The notes under the pieces are model-generated. The model made no database searches. It was not told the origin of the DNA and worked only from the letters and a program-made list of their open reading frames with translations. This document shows positions 14,595-33,867 of a stretch of DNA of 64,000 nucleotides, one piece after another (the first letter of the stretch is position 1; each line of letters opens with the position of its first letter). The DNA is from Novosphingobium sp. Its GTDB lineage: Bacteria > Pseudomonadota > Alphaproteobacteria > Sphingomonadales > Sphingomonadaceae. The DNA lies in NCBI RefSeq assembly GCF_041915465.1, contig NZ_JAYSBK010000004.1, forward strand, positions 13,559 to 77,558, written 5' to 3'. The translations under genes and the position numbers were made by a program.

Positions 14595-14662
14595 TGAACA
14601 GTAGGAAAGCCGCCCTGGCTCGCATTGGAGCCGACAAGAACAAGGGCGGACGCTGGAGGAGG

Positions 14663-14956
14663 ATGGCTGTGAGCAGCTATACGATTGAGAGCATTCTCTT
14701 TTCCCTGCAGTCGGATCCAGACTTCATGGCGCGGTTCAAGGCCGATCCTGAAGCCTCGATTCGCGACTATCCGCTGCGCGACGACGAAAGACAGGCGATC
14801 CTCGATTGGGACGTGCGGGCGATGTCGGATGCCGGCGTCAGCGCCATGTTGCTGATGGTCGCCTTTACCGCGCTCAACGGCCAGCAGGCGATGCCTGACT
14901 ACATGCGGCGCATGAACATGCCCCCCTTGCGGCAGATCGCCAGCGTAACGGCATAA
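14663..14956 (+). CDS. LigA-like small (alpha) subunit of a class III extradiol dioxygenase
   Basis: 97 aa; RFKADPEASIRDYPLRDDERQAILDWDVRAM..GVSAMLL matches the LigA pattern; directly upstream of the LigB-like gene; RBS GGAGGAGG. Confidence 0.8.
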   Translation: MAVSSYTIESILFSLQSDPDFMARFKADPEASIRDYPLRDDERQAILDWDVRAMSDAGVSAMLLMVAFTALNGQQAMPDYMRRMNMPPLRQIASVTA

Positions 14957-14982
14957 GAATAAGGCGGAGAAGGAAACGGGAA

Positions 14983-16427: not shown

Positions 16428-16443
16428 CATTCTGGAGAATGCA

Positions 16444-17448: not shown

Positions 17449-17467
17449 AGCACAGGAAAGGCAGATC

Positions 17468-18982
17468 ATGTCCGAAGTCATGGAACAGAAGGCCCCGGCC
17501 GCAGCGAACCCCTTCCAGGCCGAATACGGCCACCTGATCGGCGGCCAGTGGGTCGGTGGTTCGAGCGGCAAGCTGATCGACCAGTTCAACCCGGCGACCG
17601 GGCAGTTGCTCGGCCGGATCCAGGCGGGCAGCGTCGAGGATGCCCGCCGAGCGGTCCAGGCGGCAGCCGATGCCTTCCCGGCATGGTCGAAGACCTCGGC
17701 GGCGGAACGCCAGGCGATCCTGTTCGAAATGCTCCGCCGGCTGAAGGCGCGGGAAGCCGATTTCGCGCGCATGGAAACGCTCGGCAATGGCAAGCACATC
17801 GTCGAATCGACGCACTTCGACCTGGCGATGACCATCGACACGTTCGAATATTTCGCCGGTACGCCGTTCCTTGCCAACAGCGGCGACCTCGAGGCGACGA
17901 AGGACTACACGGCGATGATCTTCCGCCAGCCGATTGGCGTGTGCGCGCAGATCATCCCCTGGAACGTCCCGCTGCTGATGATGTCGATGAAGATCGCTCC
18001 GGCGCTGGCCTGCGGCAACACCGTGGTGCTCAAGCCTGCCGAAACGACCTCGCTGTCGGTGCTCGAGTTCTTCCGCGAAATGGAGGATCTCATCCCGCCC
18101 GGCGTGATCAACGTGCTGACCGGTTACGGCTCGGAGATCGGCGAGGCGCTGGTCACCAATCCGACGGTGCGCAAGGTTGCATTCACCGGCTCGACCATGA
18201 CCGGCCGCAAGATCATCGAATACGCTTCGAAGAACATCATTCCCCAGACGCTCGAGCTAGGCGGGAAGTCGGCGCAGATCGTCTGCAAGTCGGCCAATAT
18301 CGACGCCGCCGTCGAAGGCGTGACGGCCTCGACGGTGTTCAACAAGGGCGAGGTGTGCCTGGCTGGGTCGCGCGTTTTCGTGCACGAGGCGGTGCGCGAC
18401 GAGTTCGTCGAGAAGCTGGTCGCGCAGATCCGCAAGATCCGCATCGGCGATCCGCTCGAGTGGAGTACGCAGCTTGGCGCGATGGCCTCGAAGGCCCAGT
18501 TCGAAAAGGTCAGTTCCTACCTCGACCTGGCGCAGGAGGAAGGCGCGGTGGCGCTGACCGGCGGCAGGCCCGCAGCGGTCGAGGGGCAGGAGCAGGGCTA
18601 TTTCATCGAGCCGACCATCCTCGACAACGTCAACAACCAGATGCGCGTCGCGCGCGAGGAGATCTTCGGCCCCGTCACCAGCCTGCTGACCTGGTCGGAC
18701 GAGGGCGACGTCGTGCGTCAGGCCAACGATTCGCCGTTCGGTCTGGGCGGCGGCGTGTGGAGCCGCGACATCACCGAGGCCAATCGCATTGCGCGCGGGC
18801 TCGACACCGGCTGCGTCTGGATCAACCGCTACTACAACATGAAGTCGGGCATCCCGATCGGCGGTTTCAAGATGAGCGGCTTCGGACGCGAAGGATCGCG
18901 CGAAGTGCTGCAGCACTACACCATTTGCAAGTCCGTCGTGATGAGCACGGACGACGAACCCATGGGTATTTTCGCTCACTGA
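17468..18982 (+). CDS. NAD-dependent aromatic aldehyde dehydrogenase
   Basis: IIPWNVP, FTGST, LELGGKS, catalytic FNKGEVC and EEIFGPV motifs. Confidence 0.93.
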   Translation: MSEVMEQKAPAAANPFQAEYGHLIGGQWVGGSSGKLIDQFNPATGQLLGRIQAGSVEDARRAVQAAADAFPAWSKTSAAERQAILFEMLRRLKAREADFARMETLGNGKHIVESTHFDLAMTIDTFEYFAGTPFLANSGDLEATKDYTAMIFRQPIGVCAQIIPWNVPLLMMSMKIAPALACGNTVVLKPAETTSLSVLEFFREMEDLIPPGVINVLTGYGSEIGEALVTNPTVRKVAFTGSTMTGRKIIEYASKNIIPQTLELGGKSAQIVCKSANIDAAVEGVTASTVFNKGEVCLAGSRVFVHEAVRDEFVEKLVAQIRKIRIGDPLEWSTQLGAMASKAQFEKVSSYLDLAQEEGAVALTGGRPAAVEGQEQGYFIEPTILDNVNNQMRVAREEIFGPVTSLLTWSDEGDVVRQANDSPFGLGGGVWSRDITEANRIARGLDTGCVWINRYYNMKSGIPIGGFKMSGFGREGSREVLQHYTICKSVVMSTDDEPMGIFAH

Positions 18983-19012
18983 ACCGCGGGTTCCATCGAA
19001 AGGATCTGATTG

Positions 19013-20053
19013 ATGCCCTTTGTCCAGAACGCCTGGTACGTGGCCGGCTGGAGCAACGAGGTCGGCAAGGAAGCACCCTGGGGGCGTGTGATCGCTGGTC
19101 GGCCGATTGTCTTCTATCGTGGCGAGGACGGTTCCGTGGTCGCATTGGAGGACCGCTGCAGCCACCGCTGCGCGCCGCTGTCGAAGGGGCGCGTGGAAGG
19201 CGACGCGGTACGCTGCTGGTATCACGGGCTGCTCTTCGGGAACAACGGAGCCTGTCTCGAAATGCCGGGGCAGGACCGGGTGCCGTCGGGCTTCGGGATT
19301 CACGCCTATCCGGCCGTCGAGAAAGAAGGCTGGATATGGGTCTGGCTTGGCAGTGCCGCAGCGGCCGACGAGGCGCTGATTCCCGCCTGCGGCCTGGATG
19401 AGGGCGGGATCGACTATCGGACCGGTCATCTCGACTACGCGGCGAACTACGAACTCATCAACGACAATCTGTGCGACCTCTCGCACGTCGCTTACGTGCA
19501 CGAGCAGACGTTGGCCCGCGATGCGACGGACTGGGTGCAGCGCGAAGCGACCTACACCAACATCGACAATGGCGTGGGCGTGGCCCGGTGGATTCCCGGC
19601 TCGCAGCCGCTGCCATTGCCCGGACTGCCCGAACGGGTCGACATCCGGTCGAGCTATTCGTTCTACGTTCCCGGCGCGATGTCGCTGCTCATCGCCTACT
19701 ATCCGGTCGGCACTGCCGCCGCTGTGGAATACGGCGAGCCGCACGATGCGCCGCTGTTCGCGCTGCGCAACGTTCATGGTATCACGCCGACCGACGAGAA
19801 GTCGTCGCGCTATCATTTCGGGGTGTCGCTGCCGGTCAATCCCTGTCCGCCCGAAGCGCTCGATGCGGCGATCGCGATGGTCACCTTTGCCTTTGGCGAG
19901 GACAAGCAGACGATCGAGGACCAGCAGCGCGCGCTTGACCTGTTTCCCGACGTGGTCCTGCGCAACACGGTTCACGATACCGCGCTCATGCGCATTCGCC
20001 GGCTGATTGCCAACCAGATCAAACGGGAGACGACGATATCGTCGGAAGTCTGA
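19013..20053 (+). CDS. Rieske non-heme iron monooxygenase, VanA/TsaM/DdmC-like (O-demethylase or methyl hydroxylase)
   Basis: Rieske CSH-x16-CWYH and mononuclear iron DNLCDLSHVAYVH; no beta subunit gene adjacent. Confidence 0.88.
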   Translation: MPFVQNAWYVAGWSNEVGKEAPWGRVIAGRPIVFYRGEDGSVVALEDRCSHRCAPLSKGRVEGDAVRCWYHGLLFGNNGACLEMPGQDRVPSGFGIHAYPAVEKEGWIWVWLGSAAAADEALIPACGLDEGGIDYRTGHLDYAANYELINDNLCDLSHVAYVHEQTLARDATDWVQREATYTNIDNGVGVARWIPGSQPLPLPGLPERVDIRSSYSFYVPGAMSLLIAYYPVGTAAAVEYGEPHDAPLFALRNVHGITPTDEKSSRYHFGVSLPVNPCPPEALDAAIAMVTFAFGEDKQTIEDQQRALDLFPDVVLRNTVHDTALMRIRRLIANQIKRETTISSEV

Positions 20054-20095
20054 CTGGGGCTGCGGCGATACGGGTTCTCGACTTTATTCGTCAAT

Positions 20096-20116
20096 ATAGA
20101 CAGGCAGCATGATCAT
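20096..20116. promoter_or_regulatory. Operator copy upstream of the TonB-dependent receptor
   Basis: ATAGACAGGCAGCATGATCAT; the minus strand continues TCTATATTGAC, as at 14559-14569. Confidence 0.55.
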
Positions 20117-20196
20117 CTGGCTATCTTCCAGAATTGGCGGGAGCCGCGATCGGAACGAAGCAGACATTCCAAGCAAGTGACATTGGGGAGGAAAAC

Positions 20197-22602
20197 GTGG
20201 GAAAGTCGATAACAAGTAAGGCATCTTTGACCACCATTGCGATCGCCCTGCTGGCGTGCACGGGGACACCCGCTTTTGCAGAACGGGCCGATGACCAGGC
20301 GCCCGTCGATCAGGGTGATCAGAAGATCGAGGAGATCGTCGTGACGGCGCAGCACCGAACGGAGTCTCTGCAGAAGAGTTCGGTCGACCTCGACGTGCTT
20401 TCCTCTCGGGATCTTGACCGGGCCGGCATTTCCAGTCCCGATGACCTGACGCGTATTGCGCCGACGCTGACCATCGGCACTGCGGCGGTGTCGCCGCAGA
20501 TCTATGTGCGCGGCGTCGGCGATTTCGCGGCTACGCAGGTCAACAACCCGGCGATCGCGGTCAACGTCGACGGTGTCTATGTCGCGCGCACGGCGTCGCT
20601 CTCGACGCAGATGTACGATCTTGAGCGCGTCGAGGTGCTCAAGGGGCCGCAGGGCACGCTCTATGGGCGCAATGCATCCGGCGGCGCCGTCAACCTCATC
20701 ACGCGCGGACCCAGGCTGGGCGTTTTCGAAGGCGACGCGAGCGTCGAGATCGGCAATCTCAACGCGCTCAACCTGACGGCCGCGATCAATATCCCGATTT
20801 CCAGCGACCTTGCGGTGCGCATTGCCGGCAATCATGTACGCCGGGACGGCTACACGTCGGTGGGTCGCGGTGACGCGCAAACCGACGGCGCGCGCGTGCG
20901 CGTGCTGTGGGAGCCGTCGTCGTCGGTGTCGCTGACGGTCAACGGCAGCTATGGCCATGTCGGCGGGCGCGGCCCGGGCAGCGTGATCATCAACGGCCCG
21001 CAGGGACTCGATCCCTATACCGACAACACCAGCCCGGCGGGCATCGCCTATGTCGATTCCAAGGTCTATGTCGGTTCGGGCGTGGACCTGCGCCCGCTGG
21101 TGACCTCGCCGAATTCCGACGACGCCTTCACCGACATGACCTTCTGGACCGCGTCCGCGAAACTTGTCGCGAACCTTGGTTTCGCCGACCTGACGATCAT
21201 CCCGTCGTACCAGAACATGTCGGCGAGTTCGTTTGCCTATCCCTTCCTGAAGGTCGGTTTTGGCGCTGGCTTCGGCAGTTTCCCGGCAAAACCGGAGACG
21301 TCTGATGCCTATACGCTCGAGGTTCGCCTGTCGCGCGATACCGATCACCTGAAGTGGGTCGTCGGCGGCTATTTCTATGACGAGACCCAGCACCTCCAGT
21401 ATACCGCGAACGCCGGTCTGCTGCAGAACACGGGCCGCCTGGCGAATTTCGCCACGCGCGCCTACGCGGTCTTCGGCCAGACCACCGTCAGCCTCACCGA
21501 CACGCTGCGCCTGATCGGGGGCCTGCGCTACACGACCGACCGGCGCGAGATGACGGACGGTGCGACCTATTTCCTCAATCCGTCCTATCTCGGCCTGATT
21601 CCGCTGGATCCGACGCAGCCGGTGGGCCCCACCAATCCGCTCGTCCCGAACATCTTCGCCAGCCCGGATCCGAATGCGACGATCCTTGCAGAGACCTATT
21701 CGGGGAAGAAGACCTTCAACAATACCTCGTGGAAGGTCGGCGTCGAGTTCGACGCCGCGCCGGAAGTGATGCTGTTCGCAACCGCGAGTTCGGGTTTCAA
21801 GGCGGGCGGCTTCAATACCCAGCAGAAGCTCGGTGCGCCCGCCGGCAGCGACGAAGCCTCCTATTTCGAACCGGAAAAGCTCTATTCCTACGATTTCGGG
21901 TTCAGGAGCCGAATGTTCGGGGATCACCTTCAGGTCAATGGCGGCATCTACTACTGGAACTACAAGAACCAGCAGTTCAACCTGTTCGCCATCGGCAACC
22001 GGGGCAACCTGAGCGTGATTTTCGCCAATGCGCAGAAATCGCGCATGTATGGCGCCTACATCGATGTGGAAGCGCACCCGTGGCGCAACGGCGCTTTCAA
22101 TTTCAGCGTTGAGTACGACAACGCCAAGTACCTTCAGTTCACCTACCAGACCGCGCAGTTGCTGCCGGGCGCCACGGGCTGCGTCGCGGCGCCGGCCCAG
22201 CCGGTCGTGATCGGCCCTTCGGGACCGATCATGGCGGTCGACTGCACGGGCAAGCCGGTTCCGCGGGCACCGCGCTGGGCCGGAGCCGCCGGCTACACGC
22301 ACACGCTCGACCTGGCCACCGGCGGCTCGGTCGCGCTGCACGGGGACATGACGTTCGCGTCCGCGCGGGAGCTGACGACCGACTTCATCGCGGCCTCGCG
22401 TGTCGGCGGCTATGCGCTGTTCAACGCGAACGTCAGTTATACCAGTCCCGACGGACATTTCTCGTTGATGGCCTTCGTGCGCAACATCACCGACCAGGCG
22501 CTTTACAACGACGGTGCGGAGCCCAACTATGCGCCGGGCGTCGTCATCGGTTCGATCGGACTGCCGCGCACCTACGGCGCGCGGTTGAGCGTGAAGTTCT
22601 AG
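20197..22602 (+). CDS. TonB-dependent outer membrane receptor
   Basis: Signal peptide, EEIVVTAQ TonB-box region, ERVEVLKGPQGTLYGRNASGG plug, terminal PRTYGARLSVKF. Confidence 0.95.
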   Translation: MGKSITSKASLTTIAIALLACTGTPAFAERADDQAPVDQGDQKIEEIVVTAQHRTESLQKSSVDLDVLSSRDLDRAGISSPDDLTRIAPTLTIGTAAVSPQIYVRGVGDFAATQVNNPAIAVNVDGVYVARTASLSTQMYDLERVEVLKGPQGTLYGRNASGGAVNLITRGPRLGVFEGDASVEIGNLNALNLTAAINIPISSDLAVRIAGNHVRRDGYTSVGRGDAQTDGARVRVLWEPSSSVSLTVNGSYGHVGGRGPGSVIINGPQGLDPYTDNTSPAGIAYVDSKVYVGSGVDLRPLVTSPNSDDAFTDMTFWTASAKLVANLGFADLTIIPSYQNMSASSFAYPFLKVGFGAGFGSFPAKPETSDAYTLEVRLSRDTDHLKWVVGGYFYDETQHLQYTANAGLLQNTGRLANFATRAYAVFGQTTVSLTDTLRLIGGLRYTTDRREMTDGATYFLNPSYLGLIPLDPTQPVGPTNPLVPNIFASPDPNATILAETYSGKKTFNNTSWKVGVEFDAAPEVMLFATASSGFKAGGFNTQQKLGAPAGSDEASYFEPEKLYSYDFGFRSRMFGDHLQVNGGIYYWNYKNQQFNLFAIGNRGNLSVIFANAQKSRMYGAYIDVEAHPWRNGAFNFSVEYDNAKYLQFTYQTAQLLPGATGCVAAPAQPVVIGPSGPIMAVDCTGKPVPRAPRWAGAAGYTHTLDLATGGSVALHGDMTFASARELTTDFIAASRVGGYALFNANVSYTSPDGHFSLMAFVRNITDQALYNDGAEPNYAPGVVIGSIGLPRTYGARLSVKF

Positions 22603-22726
22603 ATGGCGTGTCTATGACGGCACGCTTGTCCGGGGCAAATTGCGCAAGCGGGTGTCCCAGGTTGACCAAAAGCCTGGGACAACGCAGTCTGGCGCTCGTT
22701 CGCATTCAGCTAATGATCATGATGTA

Positions 22727-23215
22727 ATGAGCAAGACGGAAAAACCAGCCACTCCAGCCCTTTCGGTCGGCGATCTGGCATGGCGTCATCGCAGTATGGC
22801 GCGCCTGATGAACCTGGCCGTCCAGCGCCAGCAGGAGCGCGTGATCGCGCTGATGGTCAGCGCGGGTTACACCAAGATGCGGCTTGCCCACGTCAACCTG
22901 ACGCGCAACCTCGATCTGGAAGGGAACACGATCACCGAACTGGCGTTGCGCGCGGCGATGACCAAGCAGGCGATGGGCGAACTGGTCGATCAGTGCGAGA
23001 AGATCAGGATCGTCGAACGGACGGCCGATCCTAAGGATCGGCGCGTCTGGATCGTCAAGTTCACCGATCGCGGCCTTGACTGGCTGAACGAGCTCAAGAA
23101 GGCGGTCGACCGAGTCGAGGCCGAAATGGTCGGCGTCGTCGGCGCGGAGGACTTCCACACGATCGCCGCAGCGCTGATGACCTACAATCGCACCGAGCTT
23201 CCGCCGATCGAATAG
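22727..23215 (+). CDS. MarR family transcriptional regulator
   Basis: ITELALRAAMTKQAMGELVDQCE..VER.ADPKDRR winged-helix motif. Confidence 0.9.
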   Translation: MSKTEKPATPALSVGDLAWRHRSMARLMNLAVQRQQERVIALMVSAGYTKMRLAHVNLTRNLDLEGNTITELALRAAMTKQAMGELVDQCEKIRIVERTADPKDRRVWIVKFTDRGLDWLNELKKAVDRVEAEMVGVVGAEDFHTIAAALMTYNRTELPPIE

Positions 23216-23324: not shown

Positions 23325-24425
23325 TCAGTCCATGCGCAGGACGGGCTTGACCGCCGTGCCCTTCTCGGCATCGGCGATCGCATCGTTGATCGCCGCGAAG
23401 GAATAGTAGCTGATCAGCCGGTCGAACGGGAATCGGCCTTCGCGCCACAGGCCGATCAGGCGGGGAATGAGCTGCTGTGGATCAGCGCTGCCTTCGACGA
23501 TGCCCATGACCGCGCGCCCGCCCGACATCAGATAGGTCGTATCGAGATCGAGCTTGCTGCCCGGCGGCATCGCTCCGATCAGGCCGCACTTGCCGCGCGG
23601 TGCAAGTGCCGCGACCGCCGTGTGAATCACCCCGAGATTGCCGGTCGTGTCGAGCACGTAGTCGACGCCGACGGGCGAGATCGCGTTGATCGCTTCGAGC
23701 ACGTCCGACGTGCCGGCATTGATGGTGTGCGTCGCGCCAAGGCTGGTGGCCAGCTCCAGGCGATCCGCGTTGAGGTCCACGGCCATGATCGCCGCCGCGC
23801 CCACGACCCTGGCGGCCATGATCGCGCTGAGACCGACCGCGCCGACCCCGAACACCGCGATCGAACGCCCTGCGCGCAATTCGAGGCTGTTGAACACCGA
23901 TCCGGCGCCGGTCAGCACGCCGCAACCCAGCGGGCCGAGCATGTGAAGGTCGAGATCCTTGTCGACCTTCACGACGTTGCGTTCGTTGCACAACGCGTGG
24001 GTCGCGAACGACGACTGGCCGAAGATGTTACCGTGCACCGGACCAGAGGCACCCGAAAGCGGCGTCGAGCCGTCGAGCCGCGCTCCAAGGATGTTGAGCG
24101 GAAAGAAGGCGTGGCAATAGCTCGGCGCGCCATCGACGCAGGCGGGACAGCGCCCGCAGCTATTGAACGACATGACCACGTGATCACCCGGTTCGACCGA
24201 CGTCACCGCCGCGCCGACTCGCTCGACGATGCCGGCGCCTTCGTGGCCGAGGACGGCGGGATGTGGCGTAGGCAGGGCATGGTCGCGCATCACCACGTCG
24301 GTGTGGCAGATGCCGGTGCCGACCACGCGCACGAGGATCTCGTCCGCGCGGGGGTCCTCCAGCTCAAGCTCCTCGATGTCCATCGGCGCGTGTGCCGCAT
24401 GCGTGACGGCAGCCTGAATTTTCAT
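23325..24425 (-). CDS. Zn/NAD-dependent aryl-alcohol dehydrogenase (XylB-like)
   Basis: GICHTD, LGHEGAG, structural CGRCPAC..C, PLGCGVLTGAG, GVGAVG and AVKPVL motifs. Confidence 0.9.
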   Translation of the reverse strand: MKIQAAVTHAAHAPMDIEELELEDPRADEILVRVVGTGICHTDVVMRDHALPTPHPAVLGHEGAGIVERVGAAVTSVEPGDHVVMSFNSCGRCPACVDGAPSYCHAFFPLNILGARLDGSTPLSGASGPVHGNIFGQSSFATHALCNERNVVKVDKDLDLHMLGPLGCGVLTGAGSVFNSLELRAGRSIAVFGVGAVGLSAIMAARVVGAAAIMAVDLNADRLELATSLGATHTINAGTSDVLEAINAISPVGVDYVLDTTGNLGVIHTAVAALAPRGKCGLIGAMPPGSKLDLDTTYLMSGGRAVMGIVEGSADPQQLIPRLIGLWREGRFPFDRLISYYSFAAINDAIADAEKGTAVKPVLRMD

Positions 24426-24494: not shown

Positions 24495-24848
24495 TCAGCC
24501 GTCCGGCCGGCCCGCGGATCCATCAGGCGAGGCGATGGTAATCCATCCATCCTCGATCTCGACCGGGTAGGTGCGCACGGGCGTCTGGCAGGGAAACACC
24601 ATCGCTTCGCCGGTACGGATATTGAACGCGCCGCCGTGGAACGGGCACTCGATCTGGCCGCCGTCCTGAAAACCCTCGCTCAGCAATCCGTTGCCGTGGG
24701 TGCATTGGTTGTCGGTCACGAAATAGTCGCCGTCGATCTCGTAAACCGCCAGCGACGGAAAACCGTCGAGGTCGATCGCGACGGGCGCGCCTTCCTCCAC
24801 GTCGGTTGCCGGGCAGAGCCGGACACGATCTGCGGTCGAATTGTGCAA
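24495..24848 (-). CDS. Rieske [2Fe-2S] ferredoxin
   Basis: CTHG..IECPFHGGAF motif. Confidence 0.93.
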   Translation of the reverse strand: MHNSTADRVRLCPATDVEEGAPVAIDLDGFPSLAVYEIDGDYFVTDNQCTHGNGLLSEGFQDGGQIECPFHGGAFNIRTGEAMVFPCQTPVRTYPVEIEDGWITIASPDGSAGRPDG

Positions 24849-24928: not shown

Positions 24929-24971
24929 TGTCAAGCCGTAGGATAGTCAGGCAACCTTTCTATACTTGACA
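24929..24971. promoter_or_regulatory. Divergent promoters sharing one operator
   Basis: TTGACA on the minus strand (24929-24934) and plus strand (24966-24971) flank ATAGTCAGGCAACCTTTCTAT (24943-24963). Confidence 0.65.
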
Positions 24972-25068: not shown

Positions 25069-26457
25069 GTGAGCGCTGATATGAATGGCCGGTCCGGTCC
25101 GCTTGACCGGATCAGGGACGGGCTGGACGCCTGGCTGCTGAAGGACGAGGCATCGGGCCGCTATCGGCTCGATCGCGAAGTCTTTACCGACCCGGACCTG
25201 TTCGAGCTCGAGATGAAATACATCTTCGAGCGCAACTGGGTCTTTGTCGCGCACGAGAGCCAGCTTCCCCATACCAATGACTTCCTGGCGACCTATGTCG
25301 GCCGGCAGGCGGTGTTGCTGACGCGCGACCGGCAGGGCAAGCTCGGCTGCTTCATCAATGCCTGTGCGCATCGCGGCGCGCGCGTCTGTCGCCAGCGTCG
25401 CGGCAACAGCCGCAACTTCACCTGTCCATTCCATGGCTGGACCTACGGTAGCAACGGCGCGCTGCTCGACGTGACGGACGAGGCGGAAGGCGGTTACGCT
25501 CAAGGGTTCGACCGCAAGGATCTGGGGCTCGAACCGGTGGCGCGGCTGGAATCCTATCGCGGCTTCCTTTTCGCCAGCCTTTCGCCCGATGTGCCGCCGC
25601 TCACCGATTATCTCGCGGGGGCGACGACATTCATCGACCTGCTGATTGACCAATCCCCGACCGGCGAGCTGGAAGTGCTGCGCGGTTCCACGCGCTATAC
25701 CTACAACGGGAACTGGAAACTGCAGGCCGAGAACGGGCTCGATGGCTATCACGTGGGCTCAGTTCACGGCAACTACGTGATGACGGTGATGCGCCGGGTC
25801 AGCGGCGATTCGTCGAATGACACGCGCACATTCGACTTCACCAAGGTGCCGCAGGCAGAAGGCGGCTTCTTCTCCTTCGACCATGGCCATGCGGTGCTGT
25901 GGGTCGACTATGCCAATTACCGCGACCGGCCGAATTTCGAGCTGCTCGAGGTGCTGCGCGAAAAGCGGGGCGAGCAGAAGGCGAAGTGGATGACCGAGCG
26001 GCTGCGCAACCTGCTGCTGTTCCCCAACCTGTTCCTCATGGACCAGACCAGCACGCAGTTGCGCATCATCCGGCCGATCTCGGTCGACGAGACCGAAGTG
26101 ACGACCTATTGCATCGCGCCGGTCGGCGAGAGCGCCAGGGCGCGGGCAATCCGCATCCGCCAGTACGAGGATTTCTTCAACGCCAGCGGCATGGCGACGC
26201 CGGACGATCTGGCCGAGTTCAACAACTGCCAGATCGGCTTCGGCCGTGGCGGGGGGCGTTACAACGACATGTCGCGCGGTGCTGTGCGCTGGGTGCAGGG
26301 GGCGGGCAAGTATGGCGCGGACCTGAACGTCAACGCGGTGATGAGCAGTTCGGCGCCGGCGGACGAGGGCCTCTACATCTCGATCCACGACGACTGGGCG
26401 AACCGGATGAAGGCCGCCGTCGACCGGGAAATGCTCGACCGGGAGGACGCGGAATGA
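25069..26457 (+). CDS. Ring-hydroxylating dioxygenase alpha subunit, benzoate/toluate/anthranilate 1,2-type (BenA/XylX-like)
   Basis: NACAHRG..TCPFHGW Rieske site, NWKLQAENGLDGYHVGSVH, IRQYEDFFNASGMATPDDLAEF; start uncertain (25060, 25069 or 25081). Confidence 0.92.
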   Translation: MSADMNGRSGPLDRIRDGLDAWLLKDEASGRYRLDREVFTDPDLFELEMKYIFERNWVFVAHESQLPHTNDFLATYVGRQAVLLTRDRQGKLGCFINACAHRGARVCRQRRGNSRNFTCPFHGWTYGSNGALLDVTDEAEGGYAQGFDRKDLGLEPVARLESYRGFLFASLSPDVPPLTDYLAGATTFIDLLIDQSPTGELEVLRGSTRYTYNGNWKLQAENGLDGYHVGSVHGNYVMTVMRRVSGDSSNDTRTFDFTKVPQAEGGFFSFDHGHAVLWVDYANYRDRPNFELLEVLREKRGEQKAKWMTERLRNLLLFPNLFLMDQTSTQLRIIRPISVDETEVTTYCIAPVGESARARAIRIRQYEDFFNASGMATPDDLAEFNNCQIGFGRGGGRYNDMSRGAVRWVQGAGKYGADLNVNAVMSSSAPADEGLYISIHDDWANRMKAAVDREMLDREDAE

Positions 26458-26948
26458 GTGTCGACGATGCCGGCTGGTTGTCGGTGCAGCGGTTTCTGGC
26501 GCGCGAGGCGCTGGCGCTCGATGACAAGGACTGGGACGCCTGGCTGGCGCTCTACCTGCCCGAAGCGGAATACTGGGTGCCCGCCTGGGACGATCTCGGT
26601 GGGCTCACCACCGATCCGCAGACCGAGATCTCGCTCATCTACTACCCCAATCGCGGCGGCCTGGAAGATCGGGTCTTCCGCATCCGCACCGGCCGGTCTT
26701 CCGCGACCATGCCGCTGATGCGGACCTGCCACACGTTCACTCTGCTCGATGTCGAACAGCGTGACGGTGGGGTGCGCGCCCGGACGTCATGGACCGTGCA
26801 GTCGTTCCGCGAGACGGACACGCTCACCTACTTCGGGCATGCGGATTATGATCTGGCGAAGCACGACGAGGGATGGCGGATTGCGCGCAAGAAGACGATC
26901 GTCCTCAACGACATCGCCCGCTCGCTGCTCGACATCTACAGCATCTAG
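26454..26948 (+). CDS. Ring-hydroxylating dioxygenase beta subunit (BenB/XylY-like)
   Basis: EYWVPAWDD..TDPQTEISLIYYPNRGGLEDRVFRIRTGRSSAT motif. Confidence 0.92.
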   Translation: MSVDDAGWLSVQRFLAREALALDDKDWDAWLALYLPEAEYWVPAWDDLGGLTTDPQTEISLIYYPNRGGLEDRVFRIRTGRSSATMPLMRTCHTFTLLDVEQRDGGVRARTSWTVQSFRETDTLTYFGHADYDLAKHDEGWRIARKKTIVLNDIARSLLDIYSI

Positions 26949-26957
26949 GCGGCTGGC

Positions 26958-27944
26958 ATGATGGACCCGCATCGTCCGGTCGTGGGGACGGTCATCGGCG
27001 ATCCCGCCGGTATCGGGCCGGAAGTCGTCGCCATGGCGCTGACCAGCGGCCGCGTGCACGCCTGCTCGGTCCCGCTGCTGATCGGAAGCGCCGCCGCGAT
27101 GGAGCGCGCGGTCATGGCGACCGGCGGCACTGCGCGGGTCCGCGCGATGCGCAGCGTCGAGCCGCTGAGCGACGATCCCGCGATCATCGACATCCTCGAT
27201 ACCGGCGCGCTGCCGGACGATGATCTGCCGCTGGGCGAAGACACCGCGCGTGGTGGCGAGGCGACGGCGCAGTGGCTCGACGAGATGGACCGGCTAGCGC
27301 GCGACGGGACCATCGCGGCCACCGTGCTTGCCCCTATCAGTACCGGATCGCTCAAGCAGGTCGGCAAGCTTTCCAAGGTCATCAGTCCGGCGCCGGGCGA
27401 GACCTATCTGGTGCTCGTCACCGGGCCGTTGCGTGTCGCGCACCTGACCGACCACATGCCGCTGCGGCAGGTCTGCGAGATCATCACCCCCGACCTGATC
27501 CTGCGCGCGTTGCGTGCGCTTGATGCGGCGATGCGCGGTTGGGGACTACCACGGCGACGAATCGCGGTTGCGGGACTCAATCCACACGCCGCGGGCAGCG
27601 AGGAGCTTGACGGCATTGCGCCCGGCATCGAACGCGCGCGCGCCGAGGGGATCGACGCCATTGGCCCGGAGAGCCCCGACGCGGTGTTCCGCCAGTGCAT
27701 CGAGGGCCGGTATGACATGGTGCTCGCGATGTATCACGACCAGGGACACATCGCGGTCAAGACTTGGGGCTTTTCCGGCAACAGCGTGATCATGGTCGGC
27801 GCGCCCTACATCCATGTCTCCGTCGCGCACGGCACCGCCTACGACATCGTCGGAACGGGCAAGGCCGATCCGGCGATGATGCTCAATGCGATGCGCATCG
27901 GCGGCACGCTCGCGAGCGGCGCGGGCTTCCCGGACGATGTCTGA
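26958..27944 (+). CDS. PdxA-family dehydrogenase; candidate decarboxylating cis-dihydrodiol dehydrogenase (TphB-like)
   Basis: GDPAGIGPEV, VAGLNPHA, MYHDQGHI and SVAHGTAYDIVG motifs; co-transcribed with the dioxygenase genes. Confidence 0.8.
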   Translation: MMDPHRPVVGTVIGDPAGIGPEVVAMALTSGRVHACSVPLLIGSAAAMERAVMATGGTARVRAMRSVEPLSDDPAIIDILDTGALPDDDLPLGEDTARGGEATAQWLDEMDRLARDGTIAATVLAPISTGSLKQVGKLSKVISPAPGETYLVLVTGPLRVAHLTDHMPLRQVCEIITPDLILRALRALDAAMRGWGLPRRRIAVAGLNPHAAGSEELDGIAPGIERARAEGIDAIGPESPDAVFRQCIEGRYDMVLAMYHDQGHIAVKTWGFSGNSVIMVGAPYIHVSVAHGTAYDIVGTGKADPAMMLNAMRIGGTLASGAGFPDDV

Positions 27945-29181
27945 CAGCGTTCCCGAAAGCATCGCGATCGTCGGCGCCAACCTTGCCGGCGGCCGTGCCG
28001 CGGAGGAGCTGCGACGGTCTGGGTACGAAGGCAGGCTGGTGCTGATCGGGGAAGAACCCTGGCCGCCCTACGAACGCCCGCCGTTGTCCAAGGAATTCCT
28101 GTGGAACGGCGGCGTGCCGCCCGACCCCTTCTTCCTGCACGACGAGGCTTGGTATCGCAACAATGCCATCGACGTGCGGCTTGGCATGCGGGCCGACGCG
28201 CTCGATCTGGCCGGCGGCGGCGTGCAGCTCGCATCGGGAGAACTGGTCCGCGCCGATCGCATCATGCTGGCGACCGGTGCAAGCGCGCGGCGCTTGCCTG
28301 TTGCCGGTGCTGAGGCCGAAAACGTTCATCACCTGCGTACCCGAAGCGATGCCGAAGGACTGGTCGCCGCGCTGAGGCCCGGCGCGCGCATCGTCGTCGT
28401 CGGGATGGGTGTCATCGGTGCCGAAATCGCCGCGAGTGCGCGCAAGCTCGGCTGCGAGGTCACTGCTATCGAGCCGGGGGCTGCACCGATGGCGCGGATG
28501 CTGGGCGCGCGCTTCGGGACCTGGCTGGCCGGGCTGCACGAAGCACAGGGTGTGTCGCTGCGGCTGGGCGTCGTGCCCGAGGCACTGGTGGTCGACGACG
28601 GCTGGGTGCGGGCGGTCGATTGCTCGGACGGCAGCCGCGTGGACTGCGACGCGGTCGTGGTCGGCATCGGCGTCGCGCCGCGCGTGGAACTGGCGCGCGC
28701 CGCGGGCATCGCGACCGGCAACGGGATCATCGTCGACCGGGCCTGTCGCACCAGCCACCCCGCTGTCTTCGCCGCGGGCGACGTTGCCGATCAGCCCGGC
28801 TTCTTCGGCGGACGGGCGCGGCTCGAAACCTTTCAGAACGCATCCGATCAGGCGACGGCGGCGGCGCAGGCGATGCTGGGCCGTCCGGTCGAATACGTGA
28901 GCTCGGGCTGGGCCTGGACCGACCAGTACGACGTCAATCTCCAGGTCGTCGGACGGGTCGGGGACGGTTTGTCCACGGTCATCAGGGGCTCTGCCGAAGC
29001 GCGCGATTTCTCGGTCTTCTGCCTTGAAGGAAATGTCGTGGTAGGCGCGTTGACGGTCAATCGCCCGCGCGACATGAGCGCCGGCCGCCGTATGGTTGAG
29101 CGCCGTCATGTCGTGGACCGGGCGATGCTGGCGGACGAGGCGGTTCCTCTCATGCAGGTGCTCAAGGCGGCCCGCGGGTGA
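27937..29181 (+). CDS. Glutathione-reductase-type ferredoxin reductase
   Basis: IVGANLAG, PYERPPLSK, VVVGMGVIGAE, FAAGDVA and WTDQYD motifs. Confidence 0.92.
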   Translation: MSDSVPESIAIVGANLAGGRAAEELRRSGYEGRLVLIGEEPWPPYERPPLSKEFLWNGGVPPDPFFLHDEAWYRNNAIDVRLGMRADALDLAGGGVQLASGELVRADRIMLATGASARRLPVAGAEAENVHHLRTRSDAEGLVAALRPGARIVVVGMGVIGAEIAASARKLGCEVTAIEPGAAPMARMLGARFGTWLAGLHEAQGVSLRLGVVPEALVVDDGWVRAVDCSDGSRVDCDAVVVGIGVAPRVELARAAGIATGNGIIVDRACRTSHPAVFAAGDVADQPGFFGGRARLETFQNASDQATAAAQAMLGRPVEYVSSGWAWTDQYDVNLQVVGRVGDGLSTVIRGSAEARDFSVFCLEGNVVVGALTVNRPRDMSAGRRMVERRHVVDRAMLADEAVPLMQVLKAARG

Positions 29182-29440
29182 TGCCGCCCGAACGAACGAT
29201 CCTCGCGCTGCTGCTTGAGCCGCTTGCGGTTCGCGGCAAGACCTTGCCCAATCGAATCATCATGTCGCCGATGTCGCGCACGATTTCGCCCGATGATGTG
29301 CCGGGGGCAGGCCTAGCCGATTTCTATGCCAAGCTCGCCGAAGGCGGCGTTGGCACGATATTCACTGAAGCCGCGCGAATCGAACACATCGGTGCGATCG
29401 GTTACATCGGGCTCAGCGACAACATTGCGCCGTACACTGG
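29178..29440 (+). pseudogene. Truncated NADH:flavin oxidoreductase (Old Yellow Enzyme family), N-terminal fragment only
   Basis: LPNRIIMSPMSR..FYAKLAEGGVGTIFTE matches the OYE N-terminus; similarity is lost after about 85 codons and the ORF is far shorter than an OYE. Confidence 0.75.
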
Positions 29441-29848
29441 GCAGCACCTGCATGATAGCGAGCATCATCGAGAGGTGCTCGCTGTGTTTTCTGGCCCGGC
29501 CACAACCGATGGCCAAGCAGCTACTGAAACCGGTGAACCGACACCGCGAAGTGCTGAGGCTACGGTTTCGTCGAAGCCAGCCATCGAGGTCTGGTACAAT
29601 GAAACGACACTCAGCCCGACACAAGCAGCCTAGTCGACATCCTCGAAGAACTACGACGTCACGATCATTGCAGTCGCGCGATCGTTCACACCGCCGGCAT
29701 TACGTGAAGCGGCATTCTGCGGACGCGTGGCTTACTGTGCGATGGCAGTGCCAGACCTGCATTGAGCGATTGCGCCGGCTTCTATTGCGGCAACGATTGC
29801 GTTGTTGACGCGGGTATGAGTGTTACGAGCCATTGGTAGGGTATGTGC

Positions 29849-30739: not shown

Positions 30740-30954
30740 GCGGCGCGCCGGGCCTTGGCAAAGCTGCGATCGGTGGCGATGAACCGCTCTATCATTGGCG
30801 GAATCAACCTTTCTGGCGTGGGAGCTCCCTTAGCTTCTCCGCAATTGAGAACCGTGCCATAGGCGAGCAGCTCCCGGTTCAACCGCGCTGAGACCTCCAC
30901 CGTGAGGCGCACGGGCTTCTCGTCTGCAAGATCGGCCAGCTTCAATCGAGTCAT
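30727..30954 (-). CDS. DUF2274 domain protein
   Basis: MTRLKLADLADEKPVRLTV..LIPPMIERFIATDRSF; usual position after trbI. Confidence 0.85.
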   Translation of the reverse strand: MTRLKLADLADEKPVRLTVEVSARLNRELLAYGTVLNCGEAKGAPTPERLIPPMIERFIATDRSFAKARRAAQPG

Positions 30955-32156
30955 TGCCTGCCTCCCAGAGCCAGGTCGCGGGTCACCAGCACGCGGACCG
31001 GATAACCGGGGCGAATCGTGATTGTCGGCCTGACTTGCAGCTCGCGGCTTACAATCTGCTCGCCGGCCCGGTTGGCGCTGTCCTGGCTCCCTCGGCGCAA
31101 GGCGCGCGTCAGACTGCTATCGCTGCCCGAGCCAAGTTCCGATCCGACACCGAGCAAGGTAGAGACCAGCGCCGCCTTGAGCACACCGCCCCAATGATAG
31201 TCTGTGCCGTCCTGCAAGCCGGCATAGCCGCGCGGGTCGGACGCGGGCTGGCGTTCGAGCACGATAGAGCGGCCATCGGGGAAGATTAGCCGGTTCCAGG
31301 CGAGCAGGATCCGGCTTTGCCCGAACGCGACATCGGCATCATAATCGCCGATCAGCCGCGAGCCCTGTGGAATGAGCAGGATGCGCCCGGTCGGGCTGTC
31401 ATAGACATTCTGGGTGACCTGTGCGGTCACCAGGCCCGGCAGGTCGGAGCGGATGCCGGTGATCAGCGCTGCCGGAATGACCGAACCCGCCTGCAGGATC
31501 GAAGGCGATGCCAGCCCAGTCAGCCGCTCGGCCGACACGGTGCGCCGGTCGCTGGCCCGTTCCAGAAACGCCTGCTTGCGGGCAGCATCGGACTGCGACG
31601 CATCGGACGGCGTTGCAGGTGGGGCCTCAGCGGGCGGCGGAAGTCCGACCAGTCCACCACTCCCACTTCCCGGCGACCCGCCGCCGAAGAACAGGCGACT
31701 GCTGCGCGCGGCTTCACGTTCCTGTTCGGCACGCTGGCGGGCAGCATCGGCGGCAGTGGCTGCGGGGCCCGCCGGAGCCAGAGGTGGTTGCGCTCCGATC
31801 GGCGGCAGGGCTGCTACGTCCCCGCGTCGCTGGGCATCGAGGATCGGTTTACCGAGATCGCCGGGTAGAGGCGGCCCAAGCTTGGGTACCTGGCCGTAAT
31901 CCTTGGGTGCACCCGCGAGGTTGTCGGCCACCGCAACGCCATCGGTGTTGTAGAGTTCCTCCGCGTTCTTCCGGCCTGCAGGCTGGAGCGCATAGATCAG
32001 CGCACCGCCGACCAGTGCAAAGCCACAAGCTGAGGCGATGCCGATGGCTTTCCTCGATAGCCGCATCACGCGCGGCGGATCGCCGCGCAGCTTGACCGCT
32101 GCATCGGGATCGACGGACACTGGCTCGGCGCGTTCGTCCTGGTCCTCGCCCGTCAT
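30951..32156 (-). CDS. trbI: Conjugal transfer protein TrbI/VirB10
   Basis: AGSVIPAALITGIRSDLPG and PTITIRPGY motifs. Confidence 0.95.
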   Translation of the reverse strand: MTGEDQDERAEPVSVDPDAAVKLRGDPPRVMRLSRKAIGIASACGFALVGGALIYALQPAGRKNAEELYNTDGVAVADNLAGAPKDYGQVPKLGPPLPGDLGKPILDAQRRGDVAALPPIGAQPPLAPAGPAATAADAARQRAEQEREAARSSRLFFGGGSPGSGSGGLVGLPPPAEAPPATPSDASQSDAARKQAFLERASDRRTVSAERLTGLASPSILQAGSVIPAALITGIRSDLPGLVTAQVTQNVYDSPTGRILLIPQGSRLIGDYDADVAFGQSRILLAWNRLIFPDGRSIVLERQPASDPRGYAGLQDGTDYHWGGVLKAALVSTLLGVGSELGSGSDSSLTRALRRGSQDSANRAGEQIVSRELQVRPTITIRPGYPVRVLVTRDLALGGRQ

Positions 32157-33187
32157 GCCCGCCCCCGCCGATTGGAGACGATTCGTACCGTCTGCTGGCC
32201 CTTGCGTCCGCCAAGGCGCAGTTCGGCGCGGGCGAACAGCCGATCGACGATCATGTAGCGGCCAGAGACGCGATAGTTGACCAGTTCAGCTTCGCCTTTG
32301 GCGCCGATCACGAACAGCGGCGGCAGTTCGCCTTGGGCGATGCTCTCGGGGAACTCGACGAACACGCGCACCCCGTCGTCGAAGGCGCGCAGCGGTCGCC
32401 ATTCGGGCCGGTCACCCTCGATCGCATAGCGGAAATTGAGCAGCGACAAGTCCATGCCTGCCGCCACCGGTGCCGCGCGTTCGGCTTCGGCGCGCACCTG
32501 GCGCAAGGCAATCAGTTGATCCTGCGGGTAGGTCCAGGAGACCGACGCCATGTAGACCGACGGGTTTGCGCGCAGCTCGAGGTGGTAGGTCCGCCGGTCG
32601 GTGTTGATTACAAGGTTGGTCGCTATGTCGGGCCGGATGGGCTTGACCAGAATGTGGACCCGGGCGGCGGGGCCGATGCCGCTCACCGTATCGCCGATCA
32701 TCCAGCGAACCGTATCCCCGGCCGCGACCGGGCCGGAACCAACCAGCTGCTCTCCTTCTTGCAGCGCGATGTCGCTGACCTGTCCGGGCTTGGCGTAGAT
32801 CTGGTAGAGCGCGCCTTCTGTGAAGGGGAAGACCTGGATCGCGTTGATAAACCCTGTGCGCTCGGGCTGGATGCGTGCCGCCTCCATCGCCGCTCCCACC
32901 CTGTCCTGGAGAGTGGGGCGACTCTGGGACGGGCGGGAGCGGCCCGCAGCGTGGGGAGGGGTGCGCTGCGGAAACGCTTTGAGCTGACCGGGAAGTGGCA
33001 GCGGCACGGGGATCGCAACCACATCGGGCTTGGGATAGGTCGCCTGCGGTGCCTCATTGGGAGCCGCAGGCGATGCAGGCTGGTGCGTTGTTCGATCTTG
33101 GGCCTGCGTAGGGGAAGCAAGCGCCGTGCTTGCGGCAAGCACGGCGGCGGCGACGCGGCGGTTCGCCGCAAAAAGTTTGCTGATCAT
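32153..33187 (-). CDS. trbG: Conjugal transfer protein TrbG/VirB9
   Basis: AAGDTVRW, TNLVINTDRRTYHLEL and YMIVDRLF motifs. Confidence 0.95.
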   Translation of the reverse strand: MISKLFAANRRVAAAVLAASTALASPTQAQDRTTHQPASPAAPNEAPQATYPKPDVVAIPVPLPLPGQLKAFPQRTPPHAAGRSRPSQSRPTLQDRVGAAMEAARIQPERTGFINAIQVFPFTEGALYQIYAKPGQVSDIALQEGEQLVGSGPVAAGDTVRWMIGDTVSGIGPAARVHILVKPIRPDIATNLVINTDRRTYHLELRANPSVYMASVSWTYPQDQLIALRQVRAEAERAAPVAAGMDLSLLNFRYAIEGDRPEWRPLRAFDDGVRVFVEFPESIAQGELPPLFVIGAKGEAELVNYRVSGRYMIVDRLFARAELRLGGRKGQQTVRIVSNRRGRA

Positions 33188-33867
33188 GATCCGAGTTCCT
33201 TCGACCAGTTGATGGCGTTGACGAAAATGCCGAGCGGGTTCTTGCGCAGGGCATCGGGAGTGCGGGGGACCTGAACGACGATCGTCAGGATCGCGGTCCA
33301 GCGGCTCGTTTCGGCAAGGCTGCCGTCGCGGTAGCGGCGTTCGACCCAGGCGACACGGAAGCTCGTCGGCGAGGCGCGGATAACGCTCGTCACGTCCACT
33401 CCGACCTGTTCCCGCCCGATCAGGGCGAACGGATCGTTGGTCCGCGCATAGTCGTTGAGCGCGAGCGCGCCCTTGTCGGTGGCGAAGTCATAGGCGCGCA
33501 ACCAGTTCTGCCGGACGATGATCGGATCGTCGGGCACGGCCCGGACCTGCTCGATGAACCGCGCCAGATGGAACGCGACCTGCGGGTCCGAGGGCGTGTA
33601 GCCGACATCAGCGGGGGCGACGGCCTGCGCCTCGCCGAGCTTGTCTACCTGGACCACCCAGGGCACGATCAATCCGCGCGCGCCCTGCCAGATGATCCCG
33701 ACGGTGAGGAGGCCCGTGAGCCCGAGCGCACCGAAGAAGGCAAGCCGCCAGCTGCGCGCCTGGACGCGGGCCGAGCCAATCCGGTCATCCCAGACCTGTG
33801 CAGCGCGCTGGTAGGGTGTTTCGGGTTCGGGGGTCTTGCCGTAGCGGATCGAGGGTCGTCGAAACAT
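33184..33867 (-). CDS. trbF: Conjugal transfer protein TrbF/VirB8
   Basis: TPYQRAAQVWDDRIG and KNPLGIFVNAINWS motifs. Confidence 0.95.
   Translation of the reverse strand: MFRRPSIRYGKTPEPETPYQRAAQVWDDRIGSARVQARSWRLAFFGALGLTGLLTVGIIWQGARGLIVPWVVQVDKLGEAQAVAPADVGYTPSDPQVAFHLARFIEQVRAVPDDPIIVRQNWLRAYDFATDKGALALNDYARTNDPFALIGREQVGVDVTSVIRASPTSFRVAWVERRYRDGSLAETSRWTAILTIVVQVPRTPDALRKNPLGIFVNAINWSKELGS

Follow-up and report, generated by a model that had tools for sequence, protein, structure and literature searches.

The short-chain dehydrogenase/reductase (SDR) BenD or XylL is encoded together with the dioxygenase in the benABCD and xylXYZL operons. PdxA, acting on 4-phosphohydroxythreonine, and TphB, acting on the terephthalate diol, carry out the same type of reaction, oxidative decarboxylation of a β-hydroxy acid. 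In TphB, Zn is essential, and dehydrogenation leads through a keto intermediate to the loss of CO2 (PMC13040137). In this study, we analyzed a stretch of 64,000 nucleotides from Novosphingobium sp. (contig NZ_JAYSBK010000004.1; hereafter, the window), in which the genes for the α and β subunits of a BenA/XylX-type Rieske oxygenase are followed by a gene of the PdxA family. We propose that its product, here called the PdxA-like protein, is probably a decarboxylating cis-diol dehydrogenase that depends on NAD(P)+ and a metal and is functionally analogous to TphB and BenD/XylL. The proposal draws on the order and coupling of the operon genes, the paralogy to PdxA, the loss of the motif that binds the PdxA substrate, a conserved association with Rieske oxygenases, and the lack of a BenD/XylL orthologue, and the reaction itself is suggested by family chemistry together with gene context.

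Papers from the time of pNL1 onward have described the xylX-xylY-PdxA-like triplet in gene clusters of polycyclic aromatic hydrocarbon (PAH) degraders (PMC4048848, PMC3946609, PMC8360164, PMC11099662). Khara et al. described the overlap of xylX, xylY, and orf183_9 and stated that the role of the '4-hydroxythreonine-4-phosphate dehydrogenase' 'could not be determined' (PMC4048848); the orf183_9 product is 100% identical to AAD04003 of pNL1 (supplement, PMC4048848). The pLA1 homologue was among the proteins identified in the proteome of PAH-grown cultures (PMC3946609), and a homologue was strongly induced in Novosphingobium HR1a (PMC8360164). In Cycloclasticus pugetii on naphthalene, a homologue loosely labelled dihydrodiol dehydrogenase was among the top-expressed genes (PMC11099662). 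The gene arrangement is thus already in databases and papers, and the window holds a further member of an uncharacterised clade.

Operon structure and the BenD/XylL question

The first-pass annotation of this DNA had placed a PdxA-fold gene directly after a benzoate-type dioxygenase, and this order was borne out: four genes follow one another on the plus strand (Table 1). The GTG start codon of the α subunit gene is preceded at 9 nucleotides by GAGGAG, and alternative ATG starts are present at 25060 and 25081. The ATG of the β subunit gene overlaps the α stop codon as ATGA, the ATG of the PdxA-like gene follows after a gap of 9 nucleotides, and the stop codon of the PdxA-like gene overlaps the ATG of the reductase gene in the sequence ATGTCTGA. 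Because these junctions overlap or nearly abut, the α, β, PdxA-like, and reductase genes form one translationally coupled operon. The PdxA-like frame is intact, and its GC content by codon position (0.71/0.51/0.84) is like that of the neighboring genes.

Among NCBIfam profiles, the α subunit scored nearest to BenA and next nearest to the anthranilate dioxygenase AntA. It shares 66% identity with the XylX-like protein of Sphingobium fuliginis KK22 plasmid p1 and is the only BenA-like α subunit of the genome. The electron supply is unlike BenC/XylZ and consists of a divergently encoded Rieske ferredoxin and a glutathione-reductase (GR)-type reductase, which scored 368 bits as HcaD-like and 341 bits as AndAa, both under the cut-off. 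This combination indicates a three-component oxygenase, typical of sphingomonads, and not a two-component BenABC/XylXYZ system. A plain tph operon was considered and rejected, as the α subunit is BenA-like (589 bits) and matched terephthalate dioxygenase (TPADO) at only 104 bits, and the dehydrogenase lies outside the TphB clade.

Family scans detected no SDR gene in approximately 20 kb around the operon (9-30 kb of the window). We then looked for BenD/XylL in the genome assembly (3.32 Mb, 191 contigs, 95.7% complete), taking the KK22 protein annotated as XylL as the tblastn query. No orthologue was detected; the best match, at 37% identity and 100 bits, belongs to the SDR background. The earlier statement that a PdxA-fold gene stands in place of the SDR diol dehydrogenase was therefore upheld. 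By tblastn, a XylL-like gene was also absent from both Parvibaculum metagenome-assembled genomes (MAGs) and the Porticoccaceae MAG, that is, from three of the five other genomes with the triplet, a count limited by MAG incompleteness. XylL-like genes were present in Rugosibacter (49% identity) and in one Pseudomonadota MAG (54%, on the same contig as the triplet), and KK22, pLA1, and PNB each also have XylL. Where XylL is absent, the PdxA-like gene is the only dehydrogenase gene encoded with the oxygenase; where XylL is also present, the PdxA-like protein may serve a different substrate. The pairing had been presented as a departure from the norm, which is correct against the classical BenAB/XylXY operons but does not extend to PAH-degrader clusters, where the triplet is conserved, in some cases with XylL.

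Distinction from vitamin B6 enzymes

The assembly contains exactly two genes of the PdxA family. The other one, on contig C15, lies within lptD-surA-pdxA-rsmA and exceeds the cut-offs of NF003699 (458 bits against 378) and TIGR00557 (388 against 290). The PdxA-like protein of the window fails all PdxA cut-offs, namely TIGR00557 (214 against 290), NF002992 (228 against 470), and NF003699 (177 against 378), as well as that of the PdxA2 equivalog NF002891 (188 against 583), and it shares 33% identity with the genome's own PdxA. The housekeeping surA-pdxA-rsmA context belongs to the contig C15 copy; the gene in the window is part of a catabolic operon carried by a conjugative element. Scans of the window genes revealed no pdxJ, surA, or rsmA neighbor. 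PdxA2 pairs with DUF1537 kinases; such a kinase was sought, and no kinase-family match was found among the genes scanned against Pfam (7.4-33.9 kb of the window).

From the failed cut-offs, the separate pdxA in its canonical context, and the loss of the substrate motif (see below), we infer that the window gene does not encode a B6 enzyme. It is a paralogue and not the pdxA of the cell. The first-pass annotation had reached the same view and had expected automatic annotation to mislabel the gene pdxA. Both points agree with our results: the protein scores below the PdxA and PdxA2 cut-offs, a separate pdxA exists, GHTE is deleted, Arg292 and Asp296 are replaced, and public annotation labels relatives of the gene 'PdxA'.

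The PdxA fold with its three-His divalent-metal site is present in the window protein (PF04166, 234 bits). Its best sequence matches in the PDB are PdxA2 6e85 (187 bits) and 4jqp (186 bits), and TphB 4aty matched at 110 bits. The TphB structures 4aty and 8zj3-8zj7 have the PdxA fold, in agreement with the earlier statement that TphB belongs to this family. An AlphaFold2 model of the PdxA-like protein built on 60 homologues reached a pLDDT of 90 and a pTM of 0.89. Superposition gave TM scores of 0.80 with 4jqp/PdxA2, 0.79-0.83 with PdxA (1ps6, 1ptm, and 1yxo), and 0.72-0.75 with TphB (8zj entries). The predicted PdxA fold is certain, yet the fold alone does not tell the candidate functions apart.

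Remodelling of the active site

Residues are numbered according to E. coli PdxA, as checked on the alignment with 1ps6, and counts refer to the 120 closest homologues. The window protein keeps the metal ligands H166, H211, and H266 together with D247 and D267. All 120 homologues retain H166, D247, H266, and D267, and 119 retain H211; all metal ligands are among the 58 positions invariant over 60 homologues. Trp106, Trp270, and Phe272 (numbering of the window protein) are nearly invariant and may line an aromatic pocket.

The substrate-binding segment '(H/N)K...PGHTE' of PdxA and PdxA2 is remodelled. An 8-residue deletion removes G135-H136-T137-E138 (GHTE) in 120 of 120 homologues, the NK/HK ahead of GHTE is replaced with S-T-G, and a second deletion of 5 residues follows NPHA. 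In the 'IRTSVDHGTA' region, the window protein has His for R292, Val for T293, and Ala for D296. Among the homologues, position 292 is His in 95 and Arg in none, position 293 is hydrophobic, and position 296 is Ala in 116 and otherwise Gly, with Asp in none. Generic PdxA2-like representatives retain H136 (78/116), R292 (93/116), and D296 (72/116). At the same positions, the TphB clade has G-Y-P-G for GHTE, F/L at 292, and G at 296. His136 of E. coli PdxA forms a hydrogen bond with the substrate (PMC10471632). Thus, two oxygenase-linked lineages have lost the same substrate-binding residues with the metal site kept, suggesting a ligand other than a phospho-hydroxy-acid. The loss of the same positions is the strongest sequence argument for such a putative substrate.

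Linkage to Rieske oxygenases in other genomes

A locus search with the single protein was swamped by the generic MYHDQGHI pattern and returned only 5 members of the clade, along with 75 distant loci of the PdxA2-like kind; the latter were used as a negative control. When the PdxA-like protein was at least 51% identical to that of the window, Rieske α/β genes were adjacent in every locus examined. When identity was 42% or lower (mostly Dehalococcoidia and anaerobes), Rieske neighbors were found in 0 of 75 loci, except for one 53-bit match. The linkage of the clade to Rieske α/β genes is not due to chance.

A BenA-like α/β pair was present in eight linked loci. On plasmid p1 of KK22, the order is bphC, XylX-like, XylY-like, PdxA-like, a salicylate-hydroxylase-like pair, gstA, xylF, and xylE, a classic sphingomonad PAH cluster. 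BenA-like α (49-66% identity) and β genes adjoin the gene in the two Parvibaculum MAGs, Rugosibacter, Porticoccaceae, and unclassified Pseudomonadota MAGs, and the same adjacency was seen in a Paraburkholderia assembly and a Novosphingobium MAG. Identities of the PdxA-like protein and the α subunit to those of the window (70/66, 68/65, 60/57, 59/62, 57/49, and 51/53% by locus) drop together, in keeping with joint inheritance. Across Alpha-, Beta-, and Gammaproteobacteria, the gene stays syntenic with those of Rieske oxygenases.

The partner oxygenase varies among the loci. In Polycyclovorans algicola (locus L007, 6317-8990), genes for a TphA2-like α subunit of 390 aa and a β subunit lie directly upstream of the PdxA-like gene, and the best solved relatives of this α subunit are TPADO 7q04 (TphA2, 167 bits) and 7vju, not BenA. 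This locus is a TphA2A3B-like triplet built with a dehydrogenase from a clade other than TphB. In Cycloclasticus, AndAc/salicylate-hydroxylase-like oxygenase genes lie on both sides of the PdxA-like gene. A sister clade of the Caballeronia type was Rieske-linked in three of the four contexts examined; on plasmid p3 of Caballeronia zhejiangensis (locus L011, 3712-8277), the order is α, β, ferredoxin, PdxA-like, reductase, and a major facilitator superfamily transporter gene. Members of this second clade, from the Caballeronia plasmid, a Binataceae MAG, and Polaromonas, show the same GHTE deletion, approximately 39% identity to the window protein, and the label PdxA. The Polaromonas member has a TctC-type binding protein as its partner.

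Phylogeny of the PdxA-like clade

Protein searches identified more than 100 homologues at 55-84% identity. The closest (84%) is from a Novosphingobium MAG, and the proteins of KK22, B1, and US6-1 are approximately 70% identical. The hosts include Novosphingobium, Sphingobium yanoikuyae, Sphingomonas paucimobilis, Alteraurantiacibacter, Hoeflea, Parvibaculum, Rugosibacter, Paraburkholderia, Polycyclovorans, Panacagrimonas, and Cycloclasticus. Hydrocarbon degraders are known from many of these genera. In a plasmid collection, 7 records exceeded 60% identity, and the next best was at 39%.

A maximum-likelihood (ML) tree of 62 PdxA-family proteins was constructed under LG+C20. The window protein fell inside the clade of PAH-cluster proteins (support 99/97), which is nested in a clade of 27 sequences (100/100) that includes another large group, represented by the Caballeronia plasmid gene. 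The next outward relatives are Dehalococcoidia/SAR202 proteins (99/99), which have canonical motifs and are encoded without oxygenase neighbors. TphB 4aty, the Comamonas-type TphB 8zj3, and Rhodococcus TpaC (from the tpaAa-Ab-C-B-K operon) form their own long branch elsewhere in the tree (100/100). This topology suggests separate recruitments of TphB and of the window-type clade. The approximately unbiased (AU) test did not reject a union of TphB with the 27-sequence clade (p = 0.12), so a single origin is compatible with the data and two independent recruitments are not established. On this evidence, the window protein is best described as an analogue of TphB, not as a member of the TphB clade, and its clade is nearer to PdxA2-like proteins. 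The first-pass annotation had suggested a phylogeny against TphB and true PdxA as a check.

Proposed reaction and alternative explanations

In the proposed reaction, the dioxygenase, composed of the α and β subunits, ferredoxin, and reductase, would add cis-hydroxyls to the carboxyl-bearing carbon of an aromatic acid and its neighbor, yielding a 1-carboxy-cis-1,2-dihydrodiol. The PdxA-like protein would oxidize the C2 hydroxyl, β to the carboxylate, with NAD(P)+ and the metal site formed by His166/His211/His266 and Asp247/Asp267. The resulting β-keto acid would lose CO2, and tautomerisation/rearomatisation would give a catechol-type diol.

Several points weigh against this function. The PdxA-like protein is nearer to PdxA2-type structures (187 bits) than to TphB (110 bits), so its likeness to TphB itself weighs little. 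The assignment of R292 and D296 to the phosphate/substrate site of E. coli PdxA is presumptive. SDR XylL is also carried by the pNL1-type clusters, the Rugosibacter MAG, and one other MAG, and the Cycloclasticus gene is not preceded by a co-oriented α/β pair. No biochemical characterisation of the clade was found in the literature searched, which did not extend to subscription journals. In addition, E. coli carrying sphingomonad xylXY with ferredoxin and reductase alone was reported to convert benzoate and p-toluate to catechols, and no dehydrogenase was named in the construct (Khara et al., PMC4048848). We looked for an overlap of the xylXY amplicon into the PdxA-like open reading frame (ORF), and its reverse primer was not present in the KK22 homologue.

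The PdxA-like protein might instead oxidize another intermediate, either a non-carboxylated arene cis-dihydrodiol, in a role like that of NahB/BphB and in the sense of the loose label used for Cycloclasticus, or a hydroxy-acid of the lower pathway, with the carboxylated diol left to an unrelated SDR or to spontaneous decay. The XylL gene kept in addition to the PdxA-like gene in pNL1-type clusters is compatible with this, as are the approximately 70 SDR genes of the genome (72 listed by the FabG-like model NF009466) and the AndAc/salicylate-hydroxylase-like neighbors in Cycloclasticus. However, PdxA, PdxA2, and TphB all act by oxidizing a hydroxyl positioned β to a carboxylate, with loss of CO2, and the oxygenases adjoining the clade are all carboxylate-directed (BenA-, TphA2-, and AndAc-like). 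PAH clusters already contain a BphB-type SDR, and this genome has no NahAc/BphA1-type oxygenase to make a plain dihydrodiol. We regard this explanation as unlikely. The reported production of catechol by XylXY alone in E. coli (PMC4048848) could also mean that the gene product is a non-redox accessory, such as a metal-only decarboxylase/isomerase or a stabiliser of the oxygenase, or that the gene is a decaying passenger; the two deletions in the active-site region and the uncharacterised role of the clade would be in line with this. Against it stand the intact frame with codon-position GC like that of its neighbors, the 58 invariant positions with all metal ligands among them, the confident model, the translational coupling retained on both sides, and the high expression of homologues (PMC11099662, PMC3946609), which together make such a role distinctly improbable.

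A genuine enzyme of the PdxA/PdxA2 type, acting on a phosphorylated C4 hydroxy-acid and merely travelling with catabolic genes, would account for the PF04166 score, the best PDB matches with PdxA2 6e85 and 4jqp, and the public label PdxA. It is scarcely credible given the scores under every equivalog cut-off, the deletion of GHTE with replacement of R292 and D296 in all 120 clade members, the true pdxA elsewhere in the genome, the lack of a DUF1537 kinase, pdxJ, surA, or rsmA neighbor in the window scans, and the Rieske synteny kept across three proteobacterial classes. A decarboxylating cis-diol dehydrogenase thus remains the function that we favor for the PdxA-like protein, in line with the rearomatising role that the first-pass annotation had judged probable.

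Catabolic surroundings and candidate substrate

The features around the operon are summarized in Table 1.

Table 1 Features of the window in and around the α-β-PdxA-like-reductase operon.
Feature	Position	Strand	Evidence and remarks
Aldehyde dehydrogenase	17417-18982	+	Pfam; conserved upstream module 17417-23215
VanA/DdmC-like α-only Rieske oxygenase	19010-20053	+	Best PDB match DdmC (dicamba O-demethylase), 145 bits
TonB-dependent receptor	20134-22602	+	Pfam
MarR regulator	22640-23215	+	Pfam
Zn-dependent alcohol dehydrogenase	23325-24425	-	PF08240, PF00107; downstream of the ferredoxin gene; syntenic with Novosphingobium MAG locus L099
Rieske-type [2Fe-2S] ferredoxin	24495-24848	-	PF00355 67 bits, HcaC-like NF007422 94 bits; divergent from the operon
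Putative operator, 21-bp pseudo-palindrome ATAGTCAGGCAACCTTTCTAT	24943-24963		Divergent ferredoxin/α promoter region
Rieske oxygenase α subunit, BenA/XylX type	25069-26457	+	462 aa, GTG start 25069; TIGR03229 589 bits (cut-off 781), PF00355, PF00848
Rieske oxygenase β subunit, BenB/XylY type	26454-26948	+	164 aa; TIGR03232 benB 175 bits (cut-off 226), PF00866 149 bits
PdxA-family paralogue	26958-27944	+	328 aa; PF04166 234 bits; proposed decarboxylating cis-diol dehydrogenase
Ferredoxin-NAD(P)+ reductase, GR type	27937-29181	+	414 aa; PF07992 Pyr_redox_2, PF14759 Reductase_C, PF00070
Truncated Old-Yellow-Enzyme remnant	29178-29633	+	PF00724 covers residues 12-72 only; end of the catabolic module

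A Novosphingobium MAG (locus L099) contains the genes for the aldehyde dehydrogenase, VanA-like oxygenase, receptor, alcohol dehydrogenase, α and β subunits, and PdxA-like protein at 73-78% nucleotide identity to the window. It also has a full-length Old Yellow Enzyme gene, to which the homology of the window ends at 29434. The truncated remnant is a scar left by recombination where the catabolic module ends; it is followed by a LysR gene and the type IV secretion genes TrbI/VirB10, VirB9, and VirB8 (30951-33867). No dedicated reductase accompanies the VanA/DdmC-like oxygenase, which presumably relies on the one ferredoxin and the one reductase encoded with the dioxygenase.

Two further operons lie upstream on the same strand, within 9262-18982. 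The gentisate operon encodes a flavin adenine dinucleotide (FAD) monooxygenase (9262-10986), a NahE-like aldolase, gentisate 1,2-dioxygenase (464 bits, cut-off 442), a fumarylacetoacetate hydrolase (FAH)-family hydrolase, and a maiA-type glutathione S-transferase (247 bits, cut-off 171). The meta-cleavage operon encodes a LigA/LigB-type dioxygenase, a DSBA-like NahD-type isomerase, a second NahE-like aldolase, and an aldehyde dehydrogenase. Neither a NahAc/BphA1-type oxygenase (naphthalene dioxygenase) nor NahB was found in the genome, where the other Rieske α subunits are only GbcA-like. As no NagGH-type enzyme for the conversion of salicylate to gentisate was found, the FAD monooxygenase (NF004780, 619 bits) remains as the sole candidate for this step.

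The putative operator recurs with 19 of 21 matches at 14543-14563, just upstream of the LigAB-NahD-NahE-aldehyde dehydrogenase operon, where 0 chance matches are expected. Weaker copies, at approximately 9210-9230 ahead of the gentisate operon and 20096-20116 ahead of the receptor gene, share the left half A-AG-CAGGC. This shared sequence suggests that the dioxygenase, LigAB, gentisate, and receptor genes belong to one regulon, and the product of the MarR gene is a candidate repressor.

A naphthoate-type substrate would tie these operons together. Such an acid might be converted to 1,2-dihydroxynaphthalene, feeding the LigAB-type dioxygenase, the NahD- and NahE-like enzymes, the aldehyde dehydrogenase, and the gentisate operon. 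This pathway context is suggested by the lack of NahAc and NahB in the genome and by the operator common to the dioxygenase and meta-cleavage operons; we offer the substrate tentatively, as a rather doubtful candidate.

Implications

The results can be combined into a broader picture, to which we give somewhat less than an even chance. The GHTE-deleted clade, with hundreds of members in Proteobacteria and Binataceae, would act generally as a metal-dependent decarboxylating cis-diol dehydrogenase in partnership with carboxylate-directed Rieske dioxygenases. Its recruitment would be separate from that of TphB, and in many hydrocarbon degraders it would replace SDR-type XylL/BenD. In the window, it would convert a naphthoate-type diol to 1,2-dihydroxynaphthalene, which would enter the NahD/NahE/gentisate route without naphthalene dioxygenase or NahB.

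Among degraders of PAHs and aromatic acids, hundreds of genomes carry the gene under the wrong label 'PdxA', and for 25 years it has appeared in cluster maps as an ORF of unassigned role, although it ranks among the most highly expressed genes of these clusters. If the proposed function is correct, it would fill a catabolic step for toluate, benzoate, and perhaps also naphthoate in sphingomonads, Cycloclasticus, and related bacteria, and would correct pathway reconstructions that score such organisms as BenD/XylL-negative. The clade would be the second case after TphB in which the PdxA scaffold was adapted to an arene diol in place of a phospho-sugar-acid through losses at the same substrate-binding positions, and would widen the choice of enzymes for engineering the conversion of aromatic acids to catechols. 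The version in the window is compact and self-sufficient: it comes with a ferredoxin and a reductase of its own, in a genome that lacks XylL.

Comparison with known systems

BenD/XylL (1,6-dihydroxycyclohexa-2,4-diene-1-carboxylate dehydrogenase) would share the proposed type of reaction and the place in the pathway after BenAB/XylXY, but its fold is unrelated, being a Rossmann-type SDR without metal, whereas the PdxA-like protein is a metal enzyme with a PdxA/isocitrate-dehydrogenase-like fold. PdxA2 (D-threonate/D-erythronate 4-phosphate dehydrogenase; 6e85 and 2hi1) and 4jqp are the nearest solved structures and have the same metal ligands. PdxA2 keeps NK(E), GHTE, and RTS(V/A)DHG, all of which are missing from the window protein.

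TphB/TpaC (PDB 4aty, 8zhy-8zj7) resembles the window protein in the PdxA fold, the kept His/Asp metal site, and the loss of His136, Thr137, Glu138, Arg292, and Asp296 of PdxA. Its gene also lies right after those for the Rieske α and β subunits and ahead of a reductase gene; the order α, β, PdxA-like, reductase is that of tphA2-A3-B-A1 and of the Rhodococcus tpa operon. It differs in its low similarity (27-30% identity, 110 bits) and in its separate clade (100/100), which is not sister to that of the window protein in the ML tree. TphB substitutes the motif (CPHSET, GYPG, and SSVGHG), whereas in the window clade it is deleted (losses of 8 and 5 residues, SVAHG). TphB is paired with TphA2A3 and TphA1, the window protein with a BenA/XylX-type oxygenase, a ferredoxin, and a GR-type reductase.

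The closest described relative is the ORF of sphingomonad PAH clusters (AAD04003 of pNL1, orf183_9 of Sphingobium sp. PNB, NSU_pLA1120 of pLA1, and WP_025548176 of KK22 p1), which belongs to the same clade at approximately 70% identity and has the same α-β-PdxA-like order and an identical motif state. In PAH clusters, the triplet sits between bphC and the salicylate-hydroxylase-like pair, depends on one ferredoxin and reductase that also serve six other oxygenases, and is accompanied by SDR XylL. In contrast, the window operon has its own ferredoxin and reductase in a genome without XylL, and its module differs in containing the VanA-like oxygenase, the TonB-dependent receptor, and the alcohol dehydrogenase.

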